From positions 1 through 28,983 of the forward strand of contig CAVSOU010000018.1 in assembly GCA_963729625.1 (NCBI GenBank): a DNA stretch of 28,983 nucleotides. The letters run 5' to 3'. Under the pieces are notes generated by a model that made no database searches, was not told the DNA's origin, and worked only from the letters and a program-made list of their open reading frames with translations. Both the position numbers and the translations under genes were made by a program. Within the stretch, counting starts at the first letter, position 1; each line of letters starts with the position of its first letter. This DNA is from an uncultured bacterium (GTDB taxonomy: Bacteria; Chloroflexota; UBA5177; JANWHV01). Below are positions 1 through 25,712 of the stretch, one piece after another.

Positions 1-692
1 AATGCACAGATACACCCCCATCGGCTCCAGCCTTGGTACACACAATCAGACCCGAGGCTGCAAGCTGTGCCTCATCGAAGCCTTAAGAACCAGAGCGGAC
101 TCCATCTCGGCTGGGGAAAACTACGTCTGCTTGAGCAATAAGCCGACGAACCTGCCTCCACGGTCGTGACGGAGGACCGCTTCGCGCCGGAATGCTCGGG
201 CTCAACCGACACTTTGCCGCCAGCGGCCCGAACCCTTCGCGCCGCATCGGTTACCACGTCCGCCAGTGTTGCTCCCAGGGCGATAGCGGAACCTGAGACG
301 TGCAGCCAGCTTGCGCGCTCGGGCAAGTCGCCGAGGTCTTGCAGGCGCGATTGGCCTGCGGCGGCCTCGCGCACATAAAAGACGAAGCTGCGCTCGCCGG
401 TGGCAGCATACGCGACGAAGGCTGCTGCAGTGGGAAGCACAGGATCTATGGCGATATGGTCAACACTACGCCATCCGCCGAAGTCGATCCACGATCATCC
501 GACCAAACCCGTCGTTTCCCACAGCGCCGCACATCTCGGTCTCAGCACCGAGCCGGGCTGCAGCACTGGCGAAGATGGCTGGCGCCCCATGGGTAGTGGG
601 CCGACAAACGTGGCTGTCCGGTCAAACGGCACATCACGATCCGGGCGCATGAATGCAGCGATGATTTCACCGACAACTAACAGCATAGCCAC
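1..692 (-). CDS. PfkB-family sugar kinase (frameshifted; 3' end outside window)
   Basis: Joined frames give MLLVVGEIIAAFMRP...FVGPLP..., then LPTAAAFVAYAATGERSFVFYVREAAAG and WLHVSGSA...AGGKVS, typical of PfkB N-terminal and mid domains. GGGAG RBS precedes GTG at 692 (alternative ATG at 686). Confidence 0.8.
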
Positions 693-935
693 TACTCCCA
701 GCGGGGGAACGGCACAGTCGCCTGGTGCCTCCCGCGGACGCTGTCTCTCGCGAGGCGGCTGCGCCAGCATGCACACAGAATACACTGCTGAGGACGCAGC
801 GCGTATGCTACTCCTGCCGAAGCGCCACGTCAATTGTGCAAAGTGCCGAGGATGTGCGCCGCATTGGCGGGCTACGCTGCGCCACGGCTGAGCGTAGCAC
901 GTAAACCTGGCGGGCACTCCGCGGCTGCCGCGGGG

Positions 936-1010
936 TTGCCAGCCACCGCTGGGGTAGCTTAAGATACTGATCGATTGCAAACGATATGGTTAAGAGCAAC
1001 AATATGAAAC
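936..1010 (+). promoter_or_regulatory. sigma70-type promoter with downstream phased-repeat operator (copy C), upstream of the cyclase-E1a-E1b-E2 operon
   Basis: TTGCCA (936-941), 18-nt spacer, TAAGAT (960-965), then ACTGATCGATTGCAAACGATATGGTTAAGAGCAACAATATGAAA, which is conserved in two other copies in this window. Confidence 0.7.
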
Positions 1011-1171
1011 AGGAGCGAATGCAGCGACCTGGCAAAGTGGCGCGTGGGTGGTTGCCGCAAGTGATGGGGGGCGCGGCGTAGCAATCCACGCCGTACCACT
1101 CTGGCGGCGCGACGCTAGTACACGGCTGAGCAGGCCGCTGCGCGGACGAGTAGTTACGCTGAGGACGCATC

Positions 1172-1874
1172 ATGATCAATGCAAGGATCGTGGACCTAAG
1201 TCACGCGCTCTACCCTGGTCAGGAAGAGTACCACCTGAACCTGAGAACGCATAATACAGTCGATCTCTATCCGCAGTACCCGGTGGACGACGGGAGTCTG
1301 GTACATCCTCCAGGACATAGACATGTCCTCGCGACTGCGGCACCCACATCGAGTTCCCGTATCACCACAACAGGCATGGCATGGATGCCGGCAACCTTTC
1401 CACTGGCCAGTGGCTCATCGGGGACTGTGTCTTGCTTGAGCTCCAGGCACAAGAGAGTCGGGCGACCGCGATGACGCTCGCAGGAAGTCGAGGTCCTACG
1501 ACAGCGTCATTCGGGCCGTGCGACATGCTGCTGCTCGTACTTCGACTGTGCGAAATAGCTGTACCGGACTGACCATGCCGCACGATCGTCCACGGCTGTC
1601 AGCCACGACGCGATCGAAGTGGCTCGTCTTCGCCAAGCACATCGACCTGATCGGATCGGACGCATACTGGCATAGCGCTCGGGGGTGTGCGCAAACCAGC
1701 CGAACCATCGAGCTGTTGATGGGTAATGGGATACTGATTATTGAGTGCGCTGCGCATCTTGATCAACTAGAAGCCAGCGGTTCACGTTGCTGGTGCTTGC
1801 GAGTACATGGCCTGGATTCGTGTCCCATTAGGCTCATAGCAATCGAAGATCAACAGCCGGGAGGACATTCCTAA
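1172..1874 (+). CDS. Cyclase family (kynurenine formamidase-like) metal-dependent hydrolase, frameshifted
   Basis: N-terminal RIVDLSHALYPG; GTHIEFPYHH motif region at about 1335-1370; C-terminal LLMGNGILIIE..HLDQL...GLDSCPIRLIAI. The stop overlaps the next ATG (TAATG). Confidence 0.8.
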
Positions 1875-2836
1875 TGGGATCGTGCGTTCACAGGCTTCCG
1901 CACTGCAGCTCTACGGAAACATGGTCCGCATCAGAAAGTTCGAGGAGAAGCTGTTCTTCCTGTTCTCCACGAGGTCGATGCCCGGAACTATGCACCAATA
2001 CAACGGCCAGGAAGCAGTTGCGGTTGGTGTCTGCGCTGCGCTGAACATCGACGACTAATCACGAGCACGCATAGAGGTCATGGGCATTGCATAGCGAAGG
2101 GCGCTAGCCTGAATGCGGTGATGGCGGAGATGTTCGCCAAGAGCACGGGCTGCTGCAAAGGTATGGGCGGATCTATTCACATTGCGGACTTCAGTGTCGG
2201 AATGCTTGGGGCCAACGGCATCGTCGGAGCTGGCATACCCAGGCGGCCGGCGCCGCCTGGGCTTGCAAGTATCAAAAGAACGGGAAGGTGGCGGTGGCGT
2301 TCTTCGGGGACGGTGCCGCGAATGAGGGAGCTTTTCACGAGGGCATCAACCTAGCGGCGATATGGAGGCTGCCGGCCATATTCGTATGCGAGAACAACGT
2401 CTACGGATTCTCGACGCACTACAGACGAGTAACGCCCCTCGAGGACATGGCGGATAGGGCGAGTGCCTATGGAATCCCTGGAGTCGTGGCGGACGGGATG
2501 GACGTGCTTGACGTCTACTGCAAGAGCACGGAAGCTGTCGCGCGGGCACGAAGCGGGGGACGGCCCCACCTTACTGGAATGCAAAACGTATCGATTTATG
2601 GGGCATGCGCGGGCGGAGAAGCCCACCTATCGGACGCGGGATGAGCTTGAGTCGTGGAAGCTGAAAGATTCGATCATCAGCTTCGGGCGCAGGCTGGTGA
2701 AAGACTTCGACGTGGCGGCAAGCGAATTGGCAGCCGTGAACGACGCTGTTGCTGAGGAGATCGAAGAGGCGGTGGCCTTCGCGGAAGCCAGTCCTGCCCG
2801 GGAGCGCTGGATTACCGGCGCTACATCTACGCGTAG
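1874..2836 (+). CDS. TPP-dependent dehydrogenase E1 alpha subunit (AcoA/PdhA-like), frameshifted
   Basis: LYGNMVRIRKFEE, GQEAVAVG, STHRGHGHCIAKG, GMGGSIH, GANGIVGAG, TPP motif FFGDGAANEG...ENNVYG, GPTLLECKTYRFMGH. GGAGG RBS at about 1860. Confidence 0.9.
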
Positions 2837-2851
2837 GTGCTGGGAAACAAT

Positions 2852-3872
2852 ATGAACGCGACGAAGATAGTCTAGGCACTGCGGCTCGCCCTGATAGAGG
2901 AAATGACCAGAGATGAGCGCGTGGTGTTGCTGGGAGAAGAATTGGGGTGTTTGGTGGCGCATTCCGGGTGACCGAAGGCCTGTTGGATATGTTTGGCGAG
3001 GAGAGGGTGTGTGAGACGCCCATTTCGGAAATTGCCATAGTGGGCGCGGCTATTGGCGCCGCCTTAGCAGGGCTGCGTCCGGTTGCTGAGATTCGGTACA
3101 AACGATTTTATTCCCATTGGCCATGGACCAGATCTGCAATCAGCCCGCGAATCCACCTGATGATGGGCGGGCAGGTCAGCGTGCCGTTGGTCATACGGGC
3201 GCCTATGGGCTGCACGGGCAGGCCGCACAGCACTCGCAATGCCTGGAGGCGTGGTTCATGCACACGCCGGGCCTCAAGGTGGCACTGCCGTCAACCCCGT
3301 ACGACGCCAAGGGACTGCTCAAGACGGCGATACGGGACGATAACCCGGTGATGATCTTCGAGCATAAGCTGCTCTACGGTTCGCCGTCTCCTGGAGGCGC
3401 GTCCGAAGATGGCCGTCGACGACCTGGACGAGACCTTTAAGACCAGCGCCGGACGACGAGTACCTCGTGCCGTTCGGCGTGGCCGATGTCAAGCTCGAAG
3501 GCGAAGAGTGACAGTAGTGGCCACCAGCTACATGGTACATACGTCGATCAAGGCGGCTAAGGCGTTGGCTCATAAGGGCATCGAGGTGGAGGTAATCGAT
3601 CCCGAACGTTGGTGCCGCTCGATACCAGCACCATTCTGCGGTCCGTAGAAAAGACAGGCCGACTCGTAATCGTCAGCGAGGATGTAGTGACCTGCGGTGT
3701 GGCGTCGGAGATCGCAGCCATCGTAGCGGAGCAGGCGCTGTTCAGTCTTGACGCTCCAATCAGAAGAGTCTGTGTGCCGCACACGCCGATTCCCTTTGCA
3801 CCCAGCAACGTGACGGCAGTGATTCCGCAGGAGCATGATATCGTGCGGGCCATAGAGTCGGTACTGAATTAG
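2852..3872 (+). CDS. TPP-dependent dehydrogenase E1 beta subunit (AcoB/PdhB-like), frameshifted
   Basis: [84 protein letters not shown]. Confidence 0.9.
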
Positions 3873-4182
3873 TTTCGGTTTGAGCCCTCCTGACGGGAGA
3901 TGACGTGGGATGAATCCGACGCACGACTTGCATGTCGATAGATGCTATTGGTCTTCGGCCCGCGCTGAGCACGCTGTCGAGCTCGGTCCAAGGACCGCCC
4001 TCCCCAGTTGCCTGCGTACGGGTCTCGCGCCCGACCGGCCTTCCCGGCAGAGAGCCGGTTCCGCGGGGAAATCCAGCTGCGGTAGCGACATAGCTTGAGA
4101 GCATCGCCGTCCCGACGCGGGGCAAGAGGTCCCTGCGCTTTCATGACAGCGATGCTGACGATTGGCGCGGAGGTGGCCCAAC

Positions 4183-5434
4183 ATGCCGACGCAGATCATC
4201 AGTCCGAGTGAAGGCTCATCAACAGTGCCTGGTTGTGCAATGGTATGTCAAGGTAGGGGACTCAGTCAGCATCGGGGATCCCGTCTGCGAAGTCGAGACT
4301 GACAAGACAACCATTGATCTGAGTCCCCCGCTCAGGAACCGTGCTCGATATTCTCGTCGCTGGCGGTACAGAGGTGCCCGTATCCACGCCGATCGCGATC
4401 GTGGGCGAGCTCGGCGAGGAGTACACGAGCACGTCGCCAGCCGATCAGCGGGAGGGGGCGTCGAGCGTGGCGGAGCATGCGGCGCCTGCCAACGCCATTA
4501 GGGAGAGCCCTGGCCCTGTCGAACAAGTGGCGGAGCGAGCCCGGGCACTGTCATCGCCTAGAGCCAGGCGGTTGGCAAAGGAGAAAGGTGTTGCCCTGCA
4601 CGTGGTTCGCGGCAGTGGTCCCGGCGGAAGCATCGTGGAGCGGGATGTATCGGCGTGGATTTCTGAGCATCAACTCGAAGGGCGGACTCTTGACTCCGCT
4701 GGCAGCCTGGGCACGGCAAATCGCTTGGGTAGCGCAACCCAGCCAAACGCAATGAGACTCCCCGCCGAAAGTGCTGTGCCGCGGCACCGGCAGGTAATCG
4801 CGCAGCGGCTCACGCAGGCGGTGCAGACCATCCCCCACATCGTCCTCACTGCGGCCGTCGACATGCGCCGCGCCCGCGCAAACCTGGCGCGGGGGCGTGA
4901 GGCCGGCCTGGACGAGCTCACCTACACACACCTACTGCTGCGTGCCCTGGCCCGAGCCCTGCGCGCCTATCCCGCGGTCAACCGCGTCTGGCGCACGGGG
5001 GGCGGCGGCACGCAGTACCAGGCTATCGCCGGTGCCCCCGTGGGGCTGGCGGTAGCGGGGGGGACACACTGCTAGTGCCTACCATCACCGATGCCGACCG
5101 GGTCACGCTGACAGAATTAGTGCAGGCCACGCACGCGGCGGTGCACCGGGCCCGCTGCGGCGCGCTCAGCGCAGCCGATATGCAGCCGGCGGCGGTCATC
5201 CTCAACCTCGGCATGTACCGCGTGGACACATTCCAGGCGATCATCGACCCCGAACAGACGGCCGTCCTGGCCACTGGGCGCGTGCGCGAGCAGGTGGTGG
5301 CACTTGACGGCGGCATCCACGTCGTGCCTCAGCTGCAGGCCACCCTGTCTATCGACCATCGCATCGCCGACGGCGCACTGTCTGCGATGTTCCTCGGTGC
5401 CATCGTCCAGGAGCTGGAAGATGGCCAGTCCTGA
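4183..5434 (+). CDS. Dihydrolipoamide acyltransferase E2 (AcoC/PdhC-like), frameshifted
   Basis: Lipoyl domain WYVKVGDSVSIGDPVCEVETDKT; E3-binding domain SSPRARRLAKEKGV...GSGPGGSIVERDV; catalytic LSIDHRIADGA. GGAGG RBS before ATG 4183. Confidence 0.88.
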
Positions 5435-5495
5435 AACCGGTCGCGCTGCGGCTCTGCACGCAGCGGCGCACGGCTCGCTCCTCGGCCGAACGTGC

Positions 5496-6209
5496 TCATA
5501 CCGGCTGGGCCACGACCAGCCGAATACCGTGAGCGGCGCACAGCTCTTTCATGGCGGCGCTCGCCTGATCACTTACCAGCACATCCACAGCGCCCAGCTC
5601 GCAGACGCGCGCGAAGTGCGTGACACCGACCTTGCTGTGGTCCAAGGGCAGCACGACCCGATGCGCTCGCTCAATCACCGTCGCCTTGAGTTGCGCCTCC
5701 TCCAAGTCCGCCACTGTCAGGCCATTCAGAAAAGCCGCTGACGCCGATGAAGGCGAGATTCGCGGTAAACCGCTCGAGATTCTCTGTCGCCAGGCGCCAA
5801 TGAGCGCGCCTGCCACGCGGCGCAAGCGCCCGCCGACAAGAACATGTTCCACGCCCGGTAGGTCCGCCACCAACTGGGCGACCGCGATCGCATTCGTGAG
5901 CACGGTAATGTTCCGACCGGCTAGCTTGGCGGCAATGCGCTGCACGGTGCTGCCACTATCCAGGAAGATAGCATCGCCGTCCTTGATCTCGGCCAGGCAG
6001 GCACACGCGATCGCTTCCTTGGCCCCCACATTGGCTTCGGCGCGGACGTCGAGTTCGCGCTCGAGCATCAGCGCACGGCAATCGCACCCCCGTGCGTGCG
6101 CTTGACCAGGCCACTCTGCTGCAGGGCCGAGAGGTCCTTGCGAATGGTCGGCTCGGTCACGCCGAACAACGCGACCAAGTCGGCAAGGCGCCCGCGCCCG
6201 TGCACCGCT
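5496..6209 (-). pseudogene. 5'-truncated, near-identical inverted copy of the DeoR regulator at 17064-17852
   Basis: The reverse complement aligns with 17135-17856 with few substitutions (ELGAVDVLVSD vs ELDAVDVLVTD; AQPV vs AQLV). About 24 N-terminal codons are missing; homology stops at 6209. Confidence 0.85.
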
Positions 6210-6213
6210 CTGG

Positions 6214-6342
6214 TGAACTACTCGCCTGGCAGCCTAGTCACGCATCGGCTCCGACTGGTGCGACAACCCGTGCAAGCAGGGGATCGTCTGCATCTCGTCT
6301 TGCAGACGCATCAGATCGCGACGCCACCAGGCGAGTAGTTCA
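6214..6342. mobile_element. 129-bp MITE-like element with perfect 16-bp terminal inverted repeats
   Basis: TGAACTACTCGCCTGG (6214-6229) and its exact reverse complement CCAGGCGAGTAGTTCA (6327-6342); TG...CA termini; no recognisable coding content; no clear target-site duplication. Confidence 0.6.
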
Positions 6343-6375
6343 ACGCGGCCAATCGCGCACGTCGCGAGTATCAGG

Positions 6376-7392
6376 CTACATGGTCATCACCGTCTTCACA
6401 TCCATGGGACCGGGCTCGGTGACGATCACCGTGGGCACCTCCTCCAACGTGACGCGGCGGGTGATGAGCGACTCCATGTCGAGACGGCCGGAGGCGACGA
6501 GCTCGACCGCACGCCCGTGCGTCATTGGATTGAGGTAGGAGCCGACGATGCGCAACTCGCGCGAGAAGATGTCGTAGGGAGCAATGCTCGTCGTCTGGCC
6601 CTCGGGCACAACGCCAAATACCAGGACAGTGCCGCCGCGCCGCGCCATTCTGAGCGCCTGCTCGAACGTCTCCAGCTTGCCAGCGCATTCCATCGCCACG
6701 TCCACGCCGCCGGGCACCAGGCCGTCGGCAGCGCTCACAGCGGTCACGGGGTCCTTGGCCTGCGGGTCGATGGCAGCCATAGCGCCGTGCTGCTCGGCGA
6801 GCGTGCGGCCGCGCTGATGGAGCGTGGAGAGGACGATTGTGGTGGCTCCGGCCAGCCTAGCCAACTGTACCATGAGCTGCCCGATTGTACCGCCGCCAAT
6901 GATAGCCACGCTCATGCCGGGCTGGATGCCGGCACGGTCCAGGCCGTGCAGCGAGCAAGCCAGCGGCTCACACAGGGCGGCGTGTGCCGCCAGCATGTTC
7001 GGCGGCAGAGTGTACGCTTGTGTGGCGGGCACGACGGTATACTCGGCCATTCCGCCGTCGAGAGTGGCGCCCAGGGCCCGAAGTTGCGAACAGTAGGCGA
7101 CGCTTCCACGTCGGCAGTCGCGGCAGATGCCGCAGTGGATATTCGGATCCACGGCCACGCGCGTCCCGGGCTGAATCGCCGTCTCGGCCCCCGCTTCGAC
7201 GACGGTGCCGGCGAACTCGTGGCCGATCGTGAGCGGGAACGTAGCTGGAAACTCGCCGTGCAGGATATGCCGGTCGGTCCCGCACACGCCACACGCCTCA
7301 ATGCGGACCAACAACTCGCCCGGGCCCGGCGCCCGTACCTCCACCTCGTGCACACGCAGGTCCCCTATCGTCGTGACTCTCGCTGCGCGCAT
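6376..7392 (-). CDS. Zn-dependent alcohol/polyol dehydrogenase (sorbitol/threonine dehydrogenase family)
   Basis: Intact 338-aa ORF with CGVCGTD, GHEFAG, structural-Zn CGICRDCRRG...C and GGGTIG Rossmann motif. Confidence 0.92.
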   Translation of the reverse strand: MRAARVTTIGDLRVHEVEVRAPGPGELLVRIEACGVCGTDRHILHGEFPATFPLTIGHEFAGTVVEAGAETAIQPGTRVAVDPNIHCGICRDCRRGSVAYCSQLRALGATLDGGMAEYTVVPATQAYTLPPNMLAAHAALCEPLACSLHGLDRAGIQPGMSVAIIGGGTIGQLMVQLARLAGATTIVLSTLHQRGRTLAEQHGAMAAIDPQAKDPVTAVSAADGLVPGGVDVAMECAGKLETFEQALRMARRGGTVLVFGVVPEGQTTSIAPYDIFSRELRIVGSYLNPMTHGRAVELVASGRLDMESLITRRVTLEEVPTVIVTEPGPMDVKTVMTM

Positions 7393-7517
7393 GCTTGGCT
7401 CCTCTCCTTACCGTCTCGTCACCTTCGTCCTATCCTCACTGGTAGTCGCTACTCTCGCCGAGCGCCAGACCTACTGAGCCTGCCGATGCGCCAATCCGCG
7501 TACCACCCTCGCCGTGG

Positions 7518-8490
7518 TCAATAAGCTCCCAACAACTCCTCATCTGTTGCCTCGAGCACAGCGCGCTCTCGCGTGTAGAAATACGAAGCAGTCTGCCGAA
7601 CGAGCTCGTCGAGCATCGCTGCGTCGGGGCTCCCATACATCTGATCGTATGGGTTTGCTCCGGTACCCAGTGGCTAGGGAAGCAGAAGCACCTGTCGTTG
7701 TTATAGCCCGCCACGTAGAGGGCCATGATCACGATGTCCAGGTCGAGCATGCCGGTTCCGAGCGCTCTCCTGTTCGTGTCCGCCAGGTGCAAGTTCGTCA
7801 TCATGTGGCCGTAGTTCAGAATTGTCTTGCCGATGTGCTCCTCGCCAACGAGCATGTGGAATACGTCCCCCGCGATGTGCTGGATGCCTGGATGATTGAT
7901 GGCGTCGATGAGGTTCTTGGCCTCCGCAAAGGTATGGCAGAGGCTTACCTCGTCTCGCCGCACAGGCTCAAGAGCGCGCGGATCCCGCTCCTGACAAAGT
8001 CGTCGCCCAGAACCCTCATGGTGTCTGCAGCACGCTGGAACTCGTTATCGTCGTACTTGTTCGGCCGGCCAACTGCACAGGGGCCGAACAGAATGTATTT
8101 ACCACCAACCGCGGCACAGAACTCGATGTGCGTCCTCATGTAGTCGATGGCCCGCTGTCTCGCGAAGTGGTTGGTGTTCGCGAACTCATTGTCCAGATAT
8201 ATCATGCCGCAGATACCGCTCACCTTGATCCCGTGCTCACCCAGCGTCTTGAGAACCTCCTCCGGCTTGTAGCCCAGGTCGTTGCCATAGAGGTTGCCGG
8301 GCAACTCGATATACCTCACGCCGTTGCGTGCAAGCCTCTCAGCCGACACGGCCAGCGGTTCCACGCCGAATCCCCAATTGCTCCAACCAAGATTCAGTCT
8401 GGGCAGCCTCGCTATGTCCTTACTACGCCTGAATTCGAGGAATCTCCGCACCACCTCATGATCGTGCTTCCGGAAGTTCTGTCGCTCCAC
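7518..8490 (-). CDS. Sugar (phosphate) isomerase/epimerase, xylose-isomerase-like TIM barrel (D-psicose/D-tagatose 3-epimerase-like), frameshifted
   Basis: WSNWGFG, YIELPGN, RQRAIDYMRTHIEFCAAVGG, EVSL, GDVFHM..GE, HLADTNRRALGTGMLD. The reconstructed C-terminal frame ends ...EELLGAY* at 7518. Confidence 0.8.
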
Positions 8491-8724
8491 TGCCTACTCC
8501 TCTCCAAGAACACTTCCCGGTCGATACCGGCGGGAACTGATCAGCGGCCTACGCGCGAGTATGTCAGCAGTCGCATCGGCGTGCCTCCGCCGGCGATCGC
8601 ACGTCGAAGAGGACGAACGCTTCGAAGACATGCCACGCCGAGATGCGACGTGCTTCTCTATCTACGGACCTCCCGTCGTCGGACCAGGCCGGACTGGCCG
8701 CGCACCTCGCCATCGGGTCCGTCT

Positions 8725-9503
8725 CTATTCTGTGGTTGAGCGGAGAAGGGCCGGCGCCTCATCGTCCGCGGCCATCAGCCCGACGAGCTGATCGCGCGTG
8801 AGTTCGCCCGTCCGTGCCTCAGCCAAATTGCGACCGTGCCGGAGAACCGTGAAGCGGTCTCCGACCGTGATGGCATGTGTCACATTGTGGGTAATGAAGA
8901 TAATGGCCAGACCGTCGGCGCGTGCCGTCGCGACGAGCCGCAGCACGATCGCTGCTTCATGCACGCCGAGCGCCGAGGTGGGCTCGTCAGTATCAGCACC
9001 GAGGCCCCGAAGTACATGGCGCGGGCAATGGCGACCGACTGTCGCTGGCCGCCGGACAGCGTGCTCGTGGACTGGCGTGCGCTATGCAGGCTGATCCCGA
9101 CCCGCTTGAGCTCTGTGAGCGTGATCTCTCGGCGGAAGCCCAGTCGACCCCGGCGAAGAGGACCCCAGCCGGTCGACGGCTCGCGGGCGAGGAAGAAGTT
9201 GCCGACCACCGACATCAGCGGGATCATCGCCAGATCCTGGAAGACGGTGGCGATGCCGGCTTCGAGCGCGTCGCGCGGTGAATGGAAATTGACCGGCTTG
9301 CCATCCAGCTGTATCTCCCCCGAATCCGGGCGGTGGACGCCCGAAAGCACCTTGATAAGCGTCGACTTGCCGGCCCCATTGTCGCCGAGCAGGCAAAGCA
9401 CCTCGCCCGGTTCAACCTTGAGCGAGACATTAGTAAGAGCGGCGACCCCCGGAAAGTGCTTCGTGATCTTGATCGCCTCGAGCGTTACTTGGCTGATCGC
9501 CAT
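8725..9503 (-). CDS. Monosaccharide ABC transporter ATP-binding protein (single domain), frameshifted
   Basis: Walker [10 protein letters not shown], signature [14 protein letters not shown], Walker B region ILDEP split by an indel at about 8990, H-loop ITHN. Confidence 0.92.
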
Positions 9504-10559
9504 CTGGGCCTCATCGCGCGTCTGCGCACGAAGTGGTTGAGCGCGACCGCGCCGAGCAGCATCGAGCCCAGCATGGTCTGGAACCAGTTCGCGTCGATGT
9601 TGGTAAAGAAGATGCCCTGGTTGACCATTCCAAACGCGAGCGCGCCAAACCAGGCGCCGATCGCCAGCCGTAACCGCCGGTCAGCAGCGTGCCGCCAATT
9701 ACGGACGCGGTGACCGCCTGGAACTCGACGTTTGTGCCCTGCCCGACATCGGCCGAGTTCGTCTCAATCACCTGTATAACGGCAACCAGCGCCGCCGCCA
9801 GCGCGCAGCAGATATAGAGCAGCACTCGCACCCGGTCCACCGGGACGCCGACGTTCCGCGCAGTGTTGAGATCGCCACCGGTCGCGTAGGTCCAGTTTCC
9901 AAACGACGTCTTGCGGAGCACCCAGAAAGCGACGAGCGCCAGGACGACCCACCAGACGACCGAGATAGGAAACTGGCCGATATAGCTGTTGAAGAAGACA
10001 TGGAGAGGGCTGCCGCCCGCCTTGTCGTTGACACCCTGTATCTGCGTGTTGTTTGTAACGAGGCTGGTTAGTGCTATCGTCGCTCCACGAAGAATGTAGA
10101 GCGTCGCCAGCGTCACAATGAACGACGGCAGCCCGGTCTTGATGACCAGGATGCCATTGGTCAGACCGACCACAATAGCGACAAACGCGACCAGGGCGAG
10201 CGACGGCAGCACCGGCCAGCCGAGTCGGGTGACCGTGTACGAGAACATCATCGCGGCGACGCCGAGCATGGAGCCTACGGAGAGATTGAATGTCACCGGC
10301 GATCATCAGCATCGCTACCGGCACGACGATGATGCCCTAGCTCCGCCGCAACCTGGAAGTAGTTGACCGTCCCGGCCGTACTCAGGAACCCGCGGCCGCT
10401 CGCGGCAAAGGCAAAGAAGGCAAAGACCGCTACCACCGCGACCAACGCACCCGTCTCAGGCTGCGTCGTCAGCGTGTAGAACCAGTCGGAGAGCCGGGTA
10501 CGAAGCCAGCCACCGCGCCGAGCGGCCTGTTCGTTCGACTCAGCGACCAATGGTTCCAT
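9485..10559 (-). CDS. Monosaccharide ABC transporter permease (RbsC/BPD_transp_2 family), frameshifted
   Basis: Multiple hydrophobic helices; [56 protein letters not shown]. Confidence 0.9.
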
Positions 10560-17063: not shown

Positions 17064-17852
17064 GTGACGCGGGAACCGCTGCCGGAGCCGGCCGTCTTCG
17101 CCGATGAGCGCCAATCCCGCATCGCCGAACTCGTAGCGGTGCACGGGCGCGTGCGCCTTGCCGACTTGGTCGCGTTGTTCGGCGTGACCGAGCCGACCAT
17201 TCGCAAGGACCTCTCGGCCCTGCAGCAGAGTGGCCTGGTCAAGCGCACGCACGGGGGTGCGATCGCCGTGCGCTCGATGCTCGAGCGCGAACTCGACGTC
17301 CGCGCCGAAGCCAATGTGGGGGCCAAGGAAGCGATCGCGCGTGCCTGCCTGGCCGAGATCAAGGACGGCGATGCTATCTTCCTGGATAGTGGCAGCACCG
17401 TGCAGCGCATTGCCGCCAAGCTAGCCGGTCGGAACATTACCGTGCTCACGAATGCGATCGCGGTCGCCCAGTTGGTGGCGGACCTACCGGGCGTGGAACA
17501 TGTTCTTGTCGGCGGGCGCTTGCGCCGCGTGGCAGGCGCGCTCATTGGCGCCCTGGCGACAGAGAATCTCGAGCGGTTTACCGCGAATCTCGCCTTCATC
17601 GGCGTCAGCGGCTTTTCTGAGAATGGCCTGACAGTGGCGGACTTGGAGGAGGCGCAACTCAAGGCGACGGTGATTGAGCGAGCGCATCGGGTCGTGCTGC
17701 CCTTGGACCACAGCAAGGTCGGTGTCACGCACTTCGCGCGCGTCTGCGAGCTGGATGCCGTAGATGTGCTGGTGACTGATCAAGCGAGCGCCGCCATGGA
17801 AGAGCTGTGCGCCGCTCACGGTATTCGGCTGGTCGTGGCCCAGCTGGTATGA
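17064..17852 (+). CDS. DeoR/GlpR-family transcriptional regulator, divergent from rpe
   Basis: ERQSRIAELV...LVALFGVTEPTIRKDL...RTHGGA, IFLDSGST, DHSKVG. GGAGG RBS before GTG 17064. Confidence 0.93.
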   Translation: MTREPLPEPAVFADERQSRIAELVAVHGRVRLADLVALFGVTEPTIRKDLSALQQSGLVKRTHGGAIAVRSMLERELDVRAEANVGAKEAIARACLAEIKDGDAIFLDSGSTVQRIAAKLAGRNITVLTNAIAVAQLVADLPGVEHVLVGGRLRRVAGALIGALATENLERFTANLAFIGVSGFSENGLTVADLEEAQLKATVIERAHRVVLPLDHSKVGVTHFARVCELDAVDVLVTDQASAAMEELCAAHGIRLVVAQLV

Positions 17853-18044
17853 GCAGGTCCACGCAAGGAGGGAACAAAACTCATCGCGGTGGCCGTGCTA
17901 GCTTCGCTAATGTTTCGAGAGTTGCGCAATGGGCAACGGCGCCCGTTGAGCATTATCACCACGTGGGCCGCGCTATGCAAAGCTTGGATCTGGGGCGGCT
18001 GTTGTGCGTACGACAAGTGGCTGGCCAGCTCATTCCCAGTTCCA

Positions 18045-22467: not shown

Positions 22468-23424
22468 TCAGCGACAACCTGTCGTGCGGAGAGCGTCACA
22501 TGCGACCGTGAGCGCGCCCACGAGTCCTGCCTCGTCTCCGAATCGTGCCACGGCGAAGCGCACAGCGTGCCCAGATGTGGGCAGCGTCCGTTGCCGCACC
22601 ACGTCTTGCATCGGGTCAAGCAGGAGCGCCCCAGCCCGTGCAACGCCACCACCGATCACGACAATCTCGGGATTAAAGAGGTTGATGAGGGAAGCAACGC
22701 CGATGCCCAGCGCACGCCCCGCCCGACCCATGATGTCTCGTGCCACCCGGTCTCCCGCCTGGGCCGCACCGGCGACATCTGCGGCCGTCACCGGCGAACC
22801 CTCCCGCCGCAGCGTCGTGCTCGCCCCAGCTTCCAACTGCTCTCGTGCCATACGTGCGATTGCCGTCCCTGAAGCCAGTGCTTCAAGATGCCCCGGGCTA
22901 CCGCATACGCAGATGGGTCCCTCAACGTCCACCGTCATGTGGCCAATCTCGCCCGCCGCGCCGTCCCGTCCCAGCAACAGACTTCCACCGGTAATGATTC
23001 CGCCGCCAATGCCCGTGCTGACGGTCATATAGATGACGTGCTGCGTGCCCACTCCGGCGCCGTAGCGCCACTCGGCCACGGCCGCCATGTTGGCGTCGTT
23101 CCCAACATGGACACTCTTGCCCGTGCGCCGCTCAAGCTGGTCGCGCAGGGGCATCTCCCAGATAGGGAGGGTGGGCGACGCGTGCACGACGCCGGTCCGG
23201 TGATCCACGGCGCCTGAGGTGCCTACGCCCCATCCCAGTATCGCGTCCTCAGGCACGCCGGCCTCCGCACACGCGCGACCGGCCACCACAATCATCGCCT
23301 CGATCAACGCCTCAGTCCCATCGTGCGTTGGCGTCGCCGTCTTGCAGGATGCCAGGATGGTTCCATCACCGCGTCCGACCGCTGCGCGTGTGGACGTTCC
23401 GCCGAGATCGATCGCTACAAACAC
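22468..23424 (-). CDS. ROK-family sugar kinase (glucokinase/allose-kinase-like)
   Basis: AIDLGGT, NDANMAAVAE, STGIGGG, AGEIGH, CVCGSPGHLEALASG, FNPEIVVIGGG; no N-terminal HTH. Confidence 0.92.
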   Translation of the reverse strand: MFVAIDLGGTSTRAAVGRGDGTILASCKTATPTHDGTEALIEAMIVVAGRACAEAGVPEDAILGWGVGTSGAVDHRTGVVHASPTLPIWEMPLRDQLERRTGKSVHVGNDANMAAVAEWRYGAGVGTQHVIYMTVSTGIGGGIITGGSLLLGRDGAAGEIGHMTVDVEGPICVCGSPGHLEALASGTAIARMAREQLEAGASTTLRREGSPVTAADVAGAAQAGDRVARDIMGRAGRALGIGVASLINLFNPEIVVIGGGVARAGALLLDPMQDVVRQRTLPTSGHAVRFAVARFGDEAGLVGALTVACDALRTTGCR

Positions 23425-23943
23425 CTGATGACCTCTTCTGCTTGCTTCTCAATGGGCTTGCCGTCGTTGCCCGCCACGACAGCCTGCATGCTATTCCTGA
23501 GCTTCGAGGGCTCTCGCTCCGTCTCGCGCTGAGCCTTCCCATGCGCTCGGGCTCAATGTGAACGAGCTCGGAACGGTCCTTGATCATGGCGCGCTGCTCC
23601 ACTGGCACTGCACGAGTATGGTAGCACGGATGCCAACTTGCGAAGGCGAGTAACAGATGAGATTCGAATTAAGGAAATCATCTTGCCTGCGGAGGCCGAG
23701 ATACGGATGAAAATCGGGGCTCGGTATGCTTGAGGGCGGGAAGGGGTACAGAGGTCGAGCGGTTTTGGTGCGGAGAGCCCGTAAGGAAATCTGACCGCGG
23801 GTGCGTTTTGGCAATGATGCGTGTGGCCATGGCGGCTCTGTTGGGCGCGGCGATGAGCACGGGAGTAAACTGATGCGTATTCCAAGCACCCCCACCCCGG
23901 AACAAGAGCGACCAAGCCCGTAGGTTAGGATGGGGATACGAGG

Positions 23944-24250
23944 ACGGAGGTAGTATGCGGGCGGTGCGCGGGGCTGGATGTGCACTTGCGACTCGTTCTC
24001 CTGAAATGAGGGTGCAACACGTTCAAGGATGGAGGCTAGATGTCAGCACCTCGCCAGCTACTTACCCGACTTTGGAGGTAGGCGGGGAGGGGCAACCCTC
24101 CTCGCCTGGCCAGCAAGCAGAGCGTCGCAGCCTGCGCGCTGGCCGGCGCCTCCACAGGCGAGGCCAGGCAGGACGTGCGCACGATCGGCACGACGACGCG
24201 GGACCTGGAGGCGCTGAGCCGTTGGCTGGTGGCAGCGGGGGTTGAGCGGA
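23944..24250 (+). pseudogene. IS110-family recombinase N-terminal relic, interrupted at 23986-24114
   Basis: Removing 23986-24114 gives (T)EVVCGRCAGLDVH|KQSVAACALAG...DVRTIGTTTRDLEALSRWLVAAGVE, the DEDD RuvC-like N-terminus. The start codon reads ACG, and similarity stops before the AMESTG motif. Confidence 0.85.
23986..24114 (+). mobile_element. Internally deleted group II intron relic (5' end fused to domain VI/3' end)
   Basis: Starts TTGCGACTCGTT (variant of GUGYG); ends in a DVI-like hairpin GGCGGGGAGGG-GCAA-CCCTCCTCGCC followed by TGGCCAGC; exact in-frame insertion with no target duplication. Confidence 0.7.
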
Positions 24251-24271
24251 GATCTTGCCGGAGTTGACGAT

Positions 24272-24431
24272 CATGGTCTCGTGCCGAGGCGCTGCTGGCC
24301 GCCGCCTCACAGACCTGGGTAGACTTCGAGGCCGTCCGATCATGCCGCTCCTTCAAACCGCACCAATCTGGCAACGCTCGACCAATGCAGCGCATGCGTT
24401 CAAGGAGCTCGTGCTGCGAGATGCGGTAGGC
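24272..24431 (+). pseudogene. Diverged, internally deleted relic of mtnK
   Basis: 24293-24431 aligns with 25369-25504 (TGCTGGCCGCCGCCTCACAGACCTGG...GTGCTGCGAGATGCGGTAGGC); 24272-24296 resembles 25163-25186. Confidence 0.75.
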
Positions 24432-24469
24432 CATGGTCACGAGTATTTACATTGGGAAGGGCACAAAAG

Positions 24470-25712
24470 ATGGGGCATCACAGCGAGGATGGAGGTGGCA
24501 AGCCATATCACGCTGTGAGCGTTCAAGACGCCGCGGCATACGCTGCGGCATGCGCGCCACTGCGCGACATCGTGCCCGCCGGCGGCGAGTTGGAGGCCCG
24601 GGAGGTTGGCGACGGCAATCTGAACCAAGTCTTCCTTGTCTCCAGCGCTTCCGGCGCCTCCGTAGCTATTAAAAGTAGGCCATTCCGTATCTCCGACTGG
24701 TGGGAGAGACGTGGCCACTCACGATGGAGCGAAACACCTTTGAACGCCACGCTTATGCACTCTACACCCAGTGGGTTCCCGATATAGTACCCCGAGTCTA
24801 CCACGAAGACGCTAAGTTGGCGCTGTTTGTGATGGAGGACTTATCCCGGTTGCGCATTGTGCGTGGTGCGCTACTCGAAGGCCACCTGTACACAGACCTT
24901 GCTTCAGCAATCGCTCGCTTCTGCGCCGAGACGGCGCTGCGTCCAAGTGACTTCTATGTCGCGGGCATGGAGAAGAAGGGGCTTGTAGGCGAGTTCTTCA
25001 TCAATCTCAAGCTGTGATGTTACAGGGTCAAGACCTTGTGCTGACGGATCCGTTCTACAACGCGCCCTCAAACAGCTTTGAATCCGAATTGCAGCCGGCC
25101 ATCGGTAATCTGTGGGCCGACCAGCGCACGTGCGATGGCGTTGCCAGGCTGCGCTACGCGTTCATGACCCGCGCCGAGGCACTGCTCCATGGGGACCTGC
25201 ATACCGGCAGCGTGATGGGGAGCGACGCCGAGATCAAGATCCTTGATCCCGAATTCTGCTTCTTTGGACCCATGGGCTTCGACATTGGCATGTTTATCGC
25301 CAACTTGTTCATCAGTGCCGTGGCGCATCAAGCGCTAGCGGGAACTGCCTGTGACTTCGCTGAGACGATGCTGGCCGCCGCCTCACAGACCTGGCTGGAC
25401 TTCAGGTGTCGATCGATGTCGCTCCTTCAAGCTGCGCCGGTCTGGCGACTCTCGACGATGCACAGCATGAATTCATGCATCTAGTGCTGCGAGATGCGGT
25501 AGGCTTCGCCGGCACCGAGATGATCCGGCGTACGATTGGACTCGCGCATGTGGCCGACCTCGACAGGATCACGCTGGGCGGAAGTGCGCCTTCGCGCGAA
25601 GGCGATGACAATTGCCATCGGCCGTGCCCTCGTCAGCATGCATCAGCAGGTCGATTGCTTTGATGAGGTGCTCACCATGGTTCGCAACTTGAGCAGAGTG
25701 ACCTTGGCATGA
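24470..25712 (+). CDS. mtnK: 5-methylthioribose (or 5-deoxyribose) kinase, frameshifted
   Basis: [81 protein letters not shown]. Confidence 0.9.

Follow-up and report, generated by a model that had tools for sequence, protein, structure and literature searches.

The interrupted IS110 gene fragment

Positions 23944-24249 of the window (the whole 28,983-nt stretch of DNA that was analysed) hold the first 59 codons of an IS110-family gene, interrupted by 129 nt. The insert, at 23986-24114, splits the first catalytic motif of this transposase gene fragment into a 5' exon stub (23944-23985) and a 3' exon stub (24115-24249, 45 amino acids), all on the plus strand. Upstream of the insert the frame reads TEVVCGRCAGLDVH; the insert itself begins with TTGCGACTCGTT, and downstream of it the frame continues as KQSVAACALAG...WLVAAGVER, ending with GVER. 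The split falls directly after the His codon of G-L-D-V-H, the motif with the first Asp of DEDD, and before a Lys codon (target sequence in IS110: ...GATGTGCAC/AAG..., the slash marking the junction). The boundary can be slid by one base, there being a C on either side, and a target duplication of at least 2 nt is absent from the flanks.

The same genome has an intact IS110 gene on C16 (PF01548, 119 bits) that reads ...RRCGIDVHKKSVTACVM... uninterrupted, with GIDVH at residues 10-14. Removal of 23986-24114 by a script joined ...CAGLDVH to KQSVAAC... in frame, and the joined reading matched the unbroken GIDVHKKSVTAC of the intact gene, just as the original prediction had it: excision restores the frame with no base gained or lost. 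In BLAST comparisons with the intact protein the joined stub was 46% identical over 56 amino acids (E 4e-8), and the downstream stub, which corresponds to residues 15-57, aligned from K15 with 19/43 identical residues (E 6e-8). Three stop codons, the predicted TGA and two TAGs, occur in the insert when the reading frame of its flanks is carried through it.

The host gene is dead, a stub of 59 codons. Its first codon is ACG, at a place where the related locus L033 (described below) has an ATG start, and it ends before the MESTG (second catalytic) motif, so that the remaining catalytic residues and the C-terminal domain are absent from it. Only residues 14-57 of the reference IS110 are present in the 29-kb window, in which no further IS110 pieces were found at E <= 1. 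A 50-amino-acid piece of the stub gave no Pfam match, and the stub is not among the results of the PF01548 search of the whole genome; the GLDVH motif is present. When the same 50-amino-acid stub was searched in the genome_contigs collection only two distant loci were obtained, and among 21 genomes of the class the 45-amino-acid stub was found in its own genome only. The rest of the IS110 gene is replaced by sequence that includes, at 24283-24431 (plus strand), a further copy of a 149-nt segment of the kinase-like neighbour gene, 81% identical to 25359-25504. From its open reading frames, this neighbour is putatively methylthioribose kinase-like. The kinase-like gene (24452-25660) is read as several ORFs in the contig of the window and differently in the overlapping contig C19.

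The insert was found twice in the assembly, on C18 (the contig of the window) and on C19, with 100% identity over the 129 nt. Positions 22207-28983 of C18 align with positions 1-6781 of C19 at 98.15% identity with 62 mismatches and 46 gap openings, indicating that the two copies belong to one overlapping contig end and that the insert is a single locus. At its other end (1-9598) C18 overlaps C13 (16768-26393), with 95.7% identity and 147 gap openings. The assembly has the appearance of unpolished long-read data, and frameshifts in the window may therefore be errors; statements on single bases of the insert could in principle reflect sequencing errors too, though both contigs agree over the 129 nt. 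No other copy was detected in the 5.4-Mb genome, nor in any of 60 related genomes, four of which belong to the same genus; the unit is thus not the multicopy repeat that the original prediction had named as the alternative. Searches against plasmids gave no full match (two partial matches of 27-30 nt at E 0.3), searches against phages no match, and an exact 26-mer of the 5' end had no occurrence in genome_contigs. Elsewhere in the window there is an inverted repeat pair of about 720 bp (5493-6209 and 17135-17855, 97.7% identical), a third copy of which is on C13.

The 3' part of the insert forms a 12-bp stem with a GCAA cap (24080-24107), followed by 7 nt; base 24108, the seventh from the 3' end, is a G. 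When positions 23000-25500 were compared with the Rfam group II intron models, including RF00029, neither a domain V nor any other match was obtained at E <= 10, and the open reading frame list contains no reverse transcriptase (RT) ORF at the insert. The claim that an intact domain V and an RT ORF are missing was in this way borne out, and by the same token the Rfam models did not recognize the insert itself as intron sequence. Weak Rfam matches on the window (mir-H1, CRISPR-DR29, sX9 and tfoR), all far below the cut-offs, were taken as chance. The insert also contains, at 24029-24070, a GGAGG followed after 4 nt by an ATG and an ORF of 13 codons that ends just before the hairpin; this is probably a chance occurrence.

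A full-length group II intron at the same codon junction

Metagenome contigs and viral contigs were scanned with a 22-mer from the heart of the insert hairpin, and two loci were found in the former and one in the latter. Two of the three, L034 and L035, represent the same phage sequence, present once in each collection, and were discarded as an unrelated hairpin located after a stop codon. The third locus, L033, is a metagenome contig of 3760 nt with a full-length group II intron of 2381 nt at nt 105-2485. The intron ORF encodes 567 amino acids with matches to RVT_N (1.6e-33), RVT_1 (5.9e-37) and GIIM (1e-23), and domains V-VI were recognized by RF00029 at nt 2407-2485 with 43.3 bits (cut-off 40). 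In the predicted fold a domain V hairpin is followed by a domain VI in which an A, 7 nt from the 3' end, is left unpaired; this branch A lies between an 11-bp stem and a 3-bp basal helix. An HNH domain occurs in most database relatives of the RT protein, whose own C-terminus is Cys/His-rich. Its relatives in the protein collection (P0002-P0007) are 90, 89, 79, 72, 71 and 71% identical.

The L033 intron is located between ...CAGLDVH and KKEIQAC... of another IS110 gene, that is at the same codon junction as the insert of the window. The upstream flank is MERLYTCCAGLDVH and the downstream flank KKEIQACLL...THVAMESTGVY. The 3' exon of L033 aligned with the intact IS110 of the window's genome from K15 (28/54 identical, E 5e-15) and with the window stub (18/42 identical, E 1e-10). 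The IS110 host of L033 is also an N-terminal stub only, in which matching stops after MESTGVY. Further downstream (2651-3760) L033 contains a perfect 24-bp inverted repeat (about 2962-3015) and then the start of a serine recombinase-like gene (3363-3758); another mobile element may have inserted at the second catalytic motif of this IS110. The L033 intron ends in CC (ACC), and all five relatives whose 3' ends could be placed end in AAC. Because of this unusual end and the truncated host, activity of the L033 intron is considered only putative. The unusual 3' ends, ACC at 2483-2485 of L033 and AGC at 24112-24114 of the window, could be either a trait of an odd sub-lineage or a sign that both copies have decayed.

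The 3' fragment of the insert (24065-24114) has its counterpart in the 3'-terminal 50 nt of the L033 intron, with 43/50 identical positions and 27/27 in the domain VI stem-loop shared by the two. It covers the last few bases of the 3' strand of domain V, the linker and domain VI. Local alignment of the 3' half of the insert with L033 (42/48 identical) had a score of 66, compared with a mean of 20 and a maximum of 26 for 200 shuffles. The hairpin at 24080-24107 folds like domain VI of L033, with the G at 24108 in place of the branch-point A: the aligned base of L033 is the unpaired A. A GCAA-capped stem with G at the expected branch position had been described before, and the comparison now supplies the A from which it differs. 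The 5' fragment (23986-24041), equivalent to intron nt 1 to about 57 and thus to the start of domain I, had 19/21 positions identical to the 5' end of the L033 intron in its first 21 nt, and 39/58 when the first 56 were compared; bases 2-12 are the same in both. The piece between the two fragments (24042-24064, about 23 nt) gave a best local score of 17 against the L033 intron, no better than shuffles (mean 17.7). It contains or adjoins the deletion junction and is perhaps diverged domain I or other sequence from the intron interior.

Since L033 had been found with a piece of the insert, it was important to have a control built without L033. A profile was made from the first 130 nt of six related introns (L038, L039, L040, L043, L064 and L067), L033 being left out. 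When this profile was run with nhmmer on the 29-kb window, a single match was obtained, at 23987-24070, starting from model position 2 (E 6.9e-4). Addition of L033 to the profile improved the match to E 8e-5; the alignment was weak towards 24070, with low posteriors over the middle piece. A 3' profile without L033 did not find the window, and with L033 it gave E 0.012; the failure of the former is attributed to the variability of domain VI among the L033-related introns.

Group II introns conform to a consensus of GUGYG at the 5' end, a branch A in domain VI and A-pyrimidine at the 3' end, and for domains V-VI the RF00029 consensus agrees with this. The insert starts with TTGCG (23986-23990), and L033 and the six relatives have GTGCGA; in the AGC at its 3' end the penultimate base is a G, compared with ACC in L033 and AAC in five relatives. 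The hallmarks of a working group II intron, namely the 5' G, domain V, the branch A and an RT/maturase gene or domains I-IV, are all absent from the window. What is retained amounts to about 56-85 nt of domain I plus the last 50 nt or so, and the relic, which has neither domain V nor the ORF and lacks most of domain I, is dead and unable to splice. The homology of both termini, in order and in register, supports the reading of the insert as a group II intron relic by descent. For the proposed collapsed intron, the match of the two halves to group II intron termini had been chosen beforehand as the decisive point, and both halves match the termini of the L033 intron. A related full-length intron, occupying the same IS110 junction, was likewise found, in L033 and not in the genome of the window.

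Target recognition and related introns

The hexamer GUGCAC at nt 331 of the L033 intron can form six of six base pairs, one of them G-U, with GUGCAU of its own exon. With the exon of the window (GTGCAC, 23980-23985) all six pairs are Watson-Crick, L033 serving here as a proxy because the EBS1 of the relic has been deleted. At the corresponding place the introns of L038 (nt 332) and L040 (nt 341) contain perfect complements of their own, different 5' exons. It was this covariation across L033, L038 and L040 that identified the hexamer as EBS1. The six exon bases complementary to EBS1 are the Val-His codons of the catalytic motif. The only 6/6 complement that could have served as EBS2 in L033 (nt 74) was rejected, as it lies within the conserved GAYAACT motif. 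The hairpin that bears EBS2 in L040 is absent from L033, L038, L064 and L067, and L033 has no credible EBS2. The EBS1 part of the predicted pairing was thus recovered, by proxy and with 6/6 bases of the window exon, and the EBS2 part was not.

In a sample of the phylum 30 of 401 genomes contained a match to the L033 RT at E <= 1e-60. The best identity was 63% (L038), with 49-58% for L039, L040 and L064, and a search of the viral contigs returned one relative, at 43%. The 30 phylum loci were inspected, and GTGCGA 5' ends could be placed in six of them, those used for the control profile; placements in the others were unreliable. Among the 30, L059 (genome G343) is unpublished and underlies none of the statements made here. 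The 5' ends of the L033-related introns are alignable (GTGCGA..CGTT) and their EBS1 is at the same place. The intron of L040 (G224:C23) is inserted near the N-terminus of a TnpB gene (Cas12f1-like_TNB, 1.3e-21), that of L064 (G007:C51) splits an IS66 transposase at Pfam profile positions 139/150, that of L038 adjoins an HTH_Tnp_1 ORF, and that of L039 is in a gene for a UvrD-type helicase. The L033-related family appears to specialise in mobile-element genes.

DVH codons were found upstream of the intron at none of the four loci with readable upstream sequence (L039 and L043 start at a contig edge). Similarly, the junction pattern (DVH codons followed by an intron start) did not occur in any of the 401 phylum genomes. 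Seven viral loci with the pattern were dismissed as chance; six of them share the phage-like upstream sequence ...ISDSLICFCSDVH and none has an intron-like 3' end. The order of G077 (five genomes) yielded only G077 itself, and proteins in which a peptide encoded by domain V/VI is fused to IS110 were not found. The expectation that other IS110 genes would be split at LDVH/K was consequently realized in L033 and in none of the phylum genomes. In the open-access literature no report was found of an intron at the IS110 DVH/K site, and the portions of PMC6542083 and PMC3205602 that were available contain nothing on introns in IS110.

The genome of the window was searched for a parent intron, and none was found: the best matches to the L033 RT are fragments of 39-41% identity. 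RF00029 gave four matches over the cut-off (C11:681812-681906, C8:1027457-1027551, C16:15791-15868 and C4:77470-77547) and seven at E <= 1, among them C16:2215-2293 and C20:49793-49871 below the cut-off. No intact RT ORF was present within the 3.5 kb examined upstream of these domain V-VI matches; the one on C4 is adjoined by a C-terminal RT fragment. The genome therefore seems to hold only intron remnants. Two of these have GCAA-capped domain VI stems built as in the insert. As a source of the insert, the remnant termini were rejected: only words of 8-15 nt are common to them and the insert, and no D1-D4 model matched.

Origin of the insert and comparison with known systems

We consider it probable (about 0.87) that the 129-nt insert consists of the joined ends of a mobile intron of group II which retrohomed into the IS110 gene, collapsed and was fossilised. 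In the proposed course of events a mobile group II intron would have entered the gene by retrohoming (reverse splicing with reverse transcription). Pairing of EBS1 with GUGCAY, the Val-His codons that directly precede the junction, would have selected the site, and no target duplication would have arisen. Some 2.2 kb would later have been deleted internally, so that most of domain I, domains II-IV together with the RT/maturase gene, and domain V disappeared, and some 56-85 nt from the 5' end came to adjoin approximately the last 50 nt, with domain VI. Point changes may then have turned the first base from G into T and the branch-point A into G, and altered the penultimate base as well. The start codon of the host gene and everything past residue 57 or thereabouts would have been lost too. 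The outcome would be a retroelement fossil nested in a DNA transposon and capable of neither splicing, nor movement, nor transposase production. Entry by retrohoming, deletion in place and a lineage that normally homes to the IS110 motif are what we infer from the comparisons described above.

That the insert might be an unrelated MITE, a hairpin element of the IS200/IS605 type or repair filler, with its intron likeness due to chance, was considered because no Rfam model matched and the 22-mer recurs in an unrelated phage hairpin. Elements of the IS200/IS605 type have a subterminal hairpin and cause no target duplication, and the strong subterminal hairpin and clean flanks of the insert would fit such an element. 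This explanation is hardly tenable, however, in view of the single copy, of the match of both ends to the ends of one intron in the right order and from intron base 1, and of the position of that intron in an IS110 gene, where it occupies the very same codon junction. Scarcely more probable is an origin as a mini-intron which was already short and protein-less at insertion and was moved in trans by the protein of a relative. Thermosynechococcus, according to the available part of PMC2882425, provides examples of group II introns that have no ORF and are mobilised in trans, and the window's genome has several other intron remnants; yet the insert has neither domain V nor that part of domain I which bears the EBS, both of them needed for reverse splicing, and neither that genome nor the 60 relatives contain a second copy.

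A living intron lineage may home to the Val-His/Lys codons of the first catalytic motif of IS110 through the 6-nt EBS1 GUGCAC, the window holding a fossil and L033 a full-length member; we put this at even odds. Such a lineage is suggested by two cases only, the window and L033. Alternatively, there would be no homing lineage, and a single old insertion into an ancestral IS110 would have been inherited by both loci. The scarcity of cases, with the strict junction pattern in 0/401 phylum genomes, is compatible with a single insertion, as are the similar N-terminal stubs of the two hosts and the identity of their 5' exons near the junction (32/44 nt). The hosts, however, have diverged to 26/59 identical residues in the protein stubs and 87/143 nt in the 3' exon DNA, as opposed to 43/50 in the intron ends and 27/27 in a stem-loop that is free to vary in the relatives. 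The introns thus appear to be of far more recent origin than the divergence of their hosts, which favours separate insertions into two IS110 elements. A single old insertion also sits poorly with the complementarity of EBS1 to the conserved Val-His codons and with the location of the relatives at defined sites of other mobile-element genes (TnpB in L040, IS66 in L064), and is regarded as unlikely, although clearly less so than the two explanations discussed before. The proposal that an intron lineage parasitises IS110 accordingly gained a full-length intron at the same site, and with two cases it stays inferred.

The locus in the window is inert and has no consequence for the cell. It is a clear example of group II intron decay in which the interior was lost and both ends were kept, and it illustrates that an orphan insert of 129 bases without a database or Rfam match can be traced via a single metagenome relative. 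IS110 recombinases are of interest as RNA-guided 'bridge' recombinases. If the homing lineage is real, a retroelement targets the codons of their catalytic motif, could jump between IS110 elements with less than 50% protein identity and would make production of the recombinase dependent on splicing; one mobile element would then be gating another in nature.

An intron nested in a transposase gene is an already known kind of arrangement. The group II intron RmInt1 resides in ISRm2011-2 of Sinorhizobium meliloti, as described in the available parts of PMC1802570, PMC3035460, PMC4238363 and PMC4496777. The likeness to RmInt1 extends to the home of the intron, a defined site inside the transposase gene of an insertion sequence, to the decay of copies in the genome, and to the transposase being made only after splicing. 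Here, in contrast, the host is an IS110-family (DEDD) element and not ISRm2011-2, the site consists of codons of the first catalytic motif, and the window copy is a non-working relic with two ends. The RmInt1 protein is stated in an abstract to have no endonuclease domain, whereas most L033 relatives have an HNH domain. The introns of L040, L064 and L039 belong to the same family as that of the window and differ from it in their target genes and EBS1, none of them being located at IS110 DVH/K. In the part of PMC4496777 that was available, bacterial group II introns, as studied with RmInt1, are described as decaying by fragmentation in which the 3' terminus is lost. The insert resembles those fragmented introns in being a non-functional remnant left after mobility had ended; it differs from them, as far as that part of the paper describes them, in that both termini were kept and the interior, from domain I (most of it) to domain V, has been lost.
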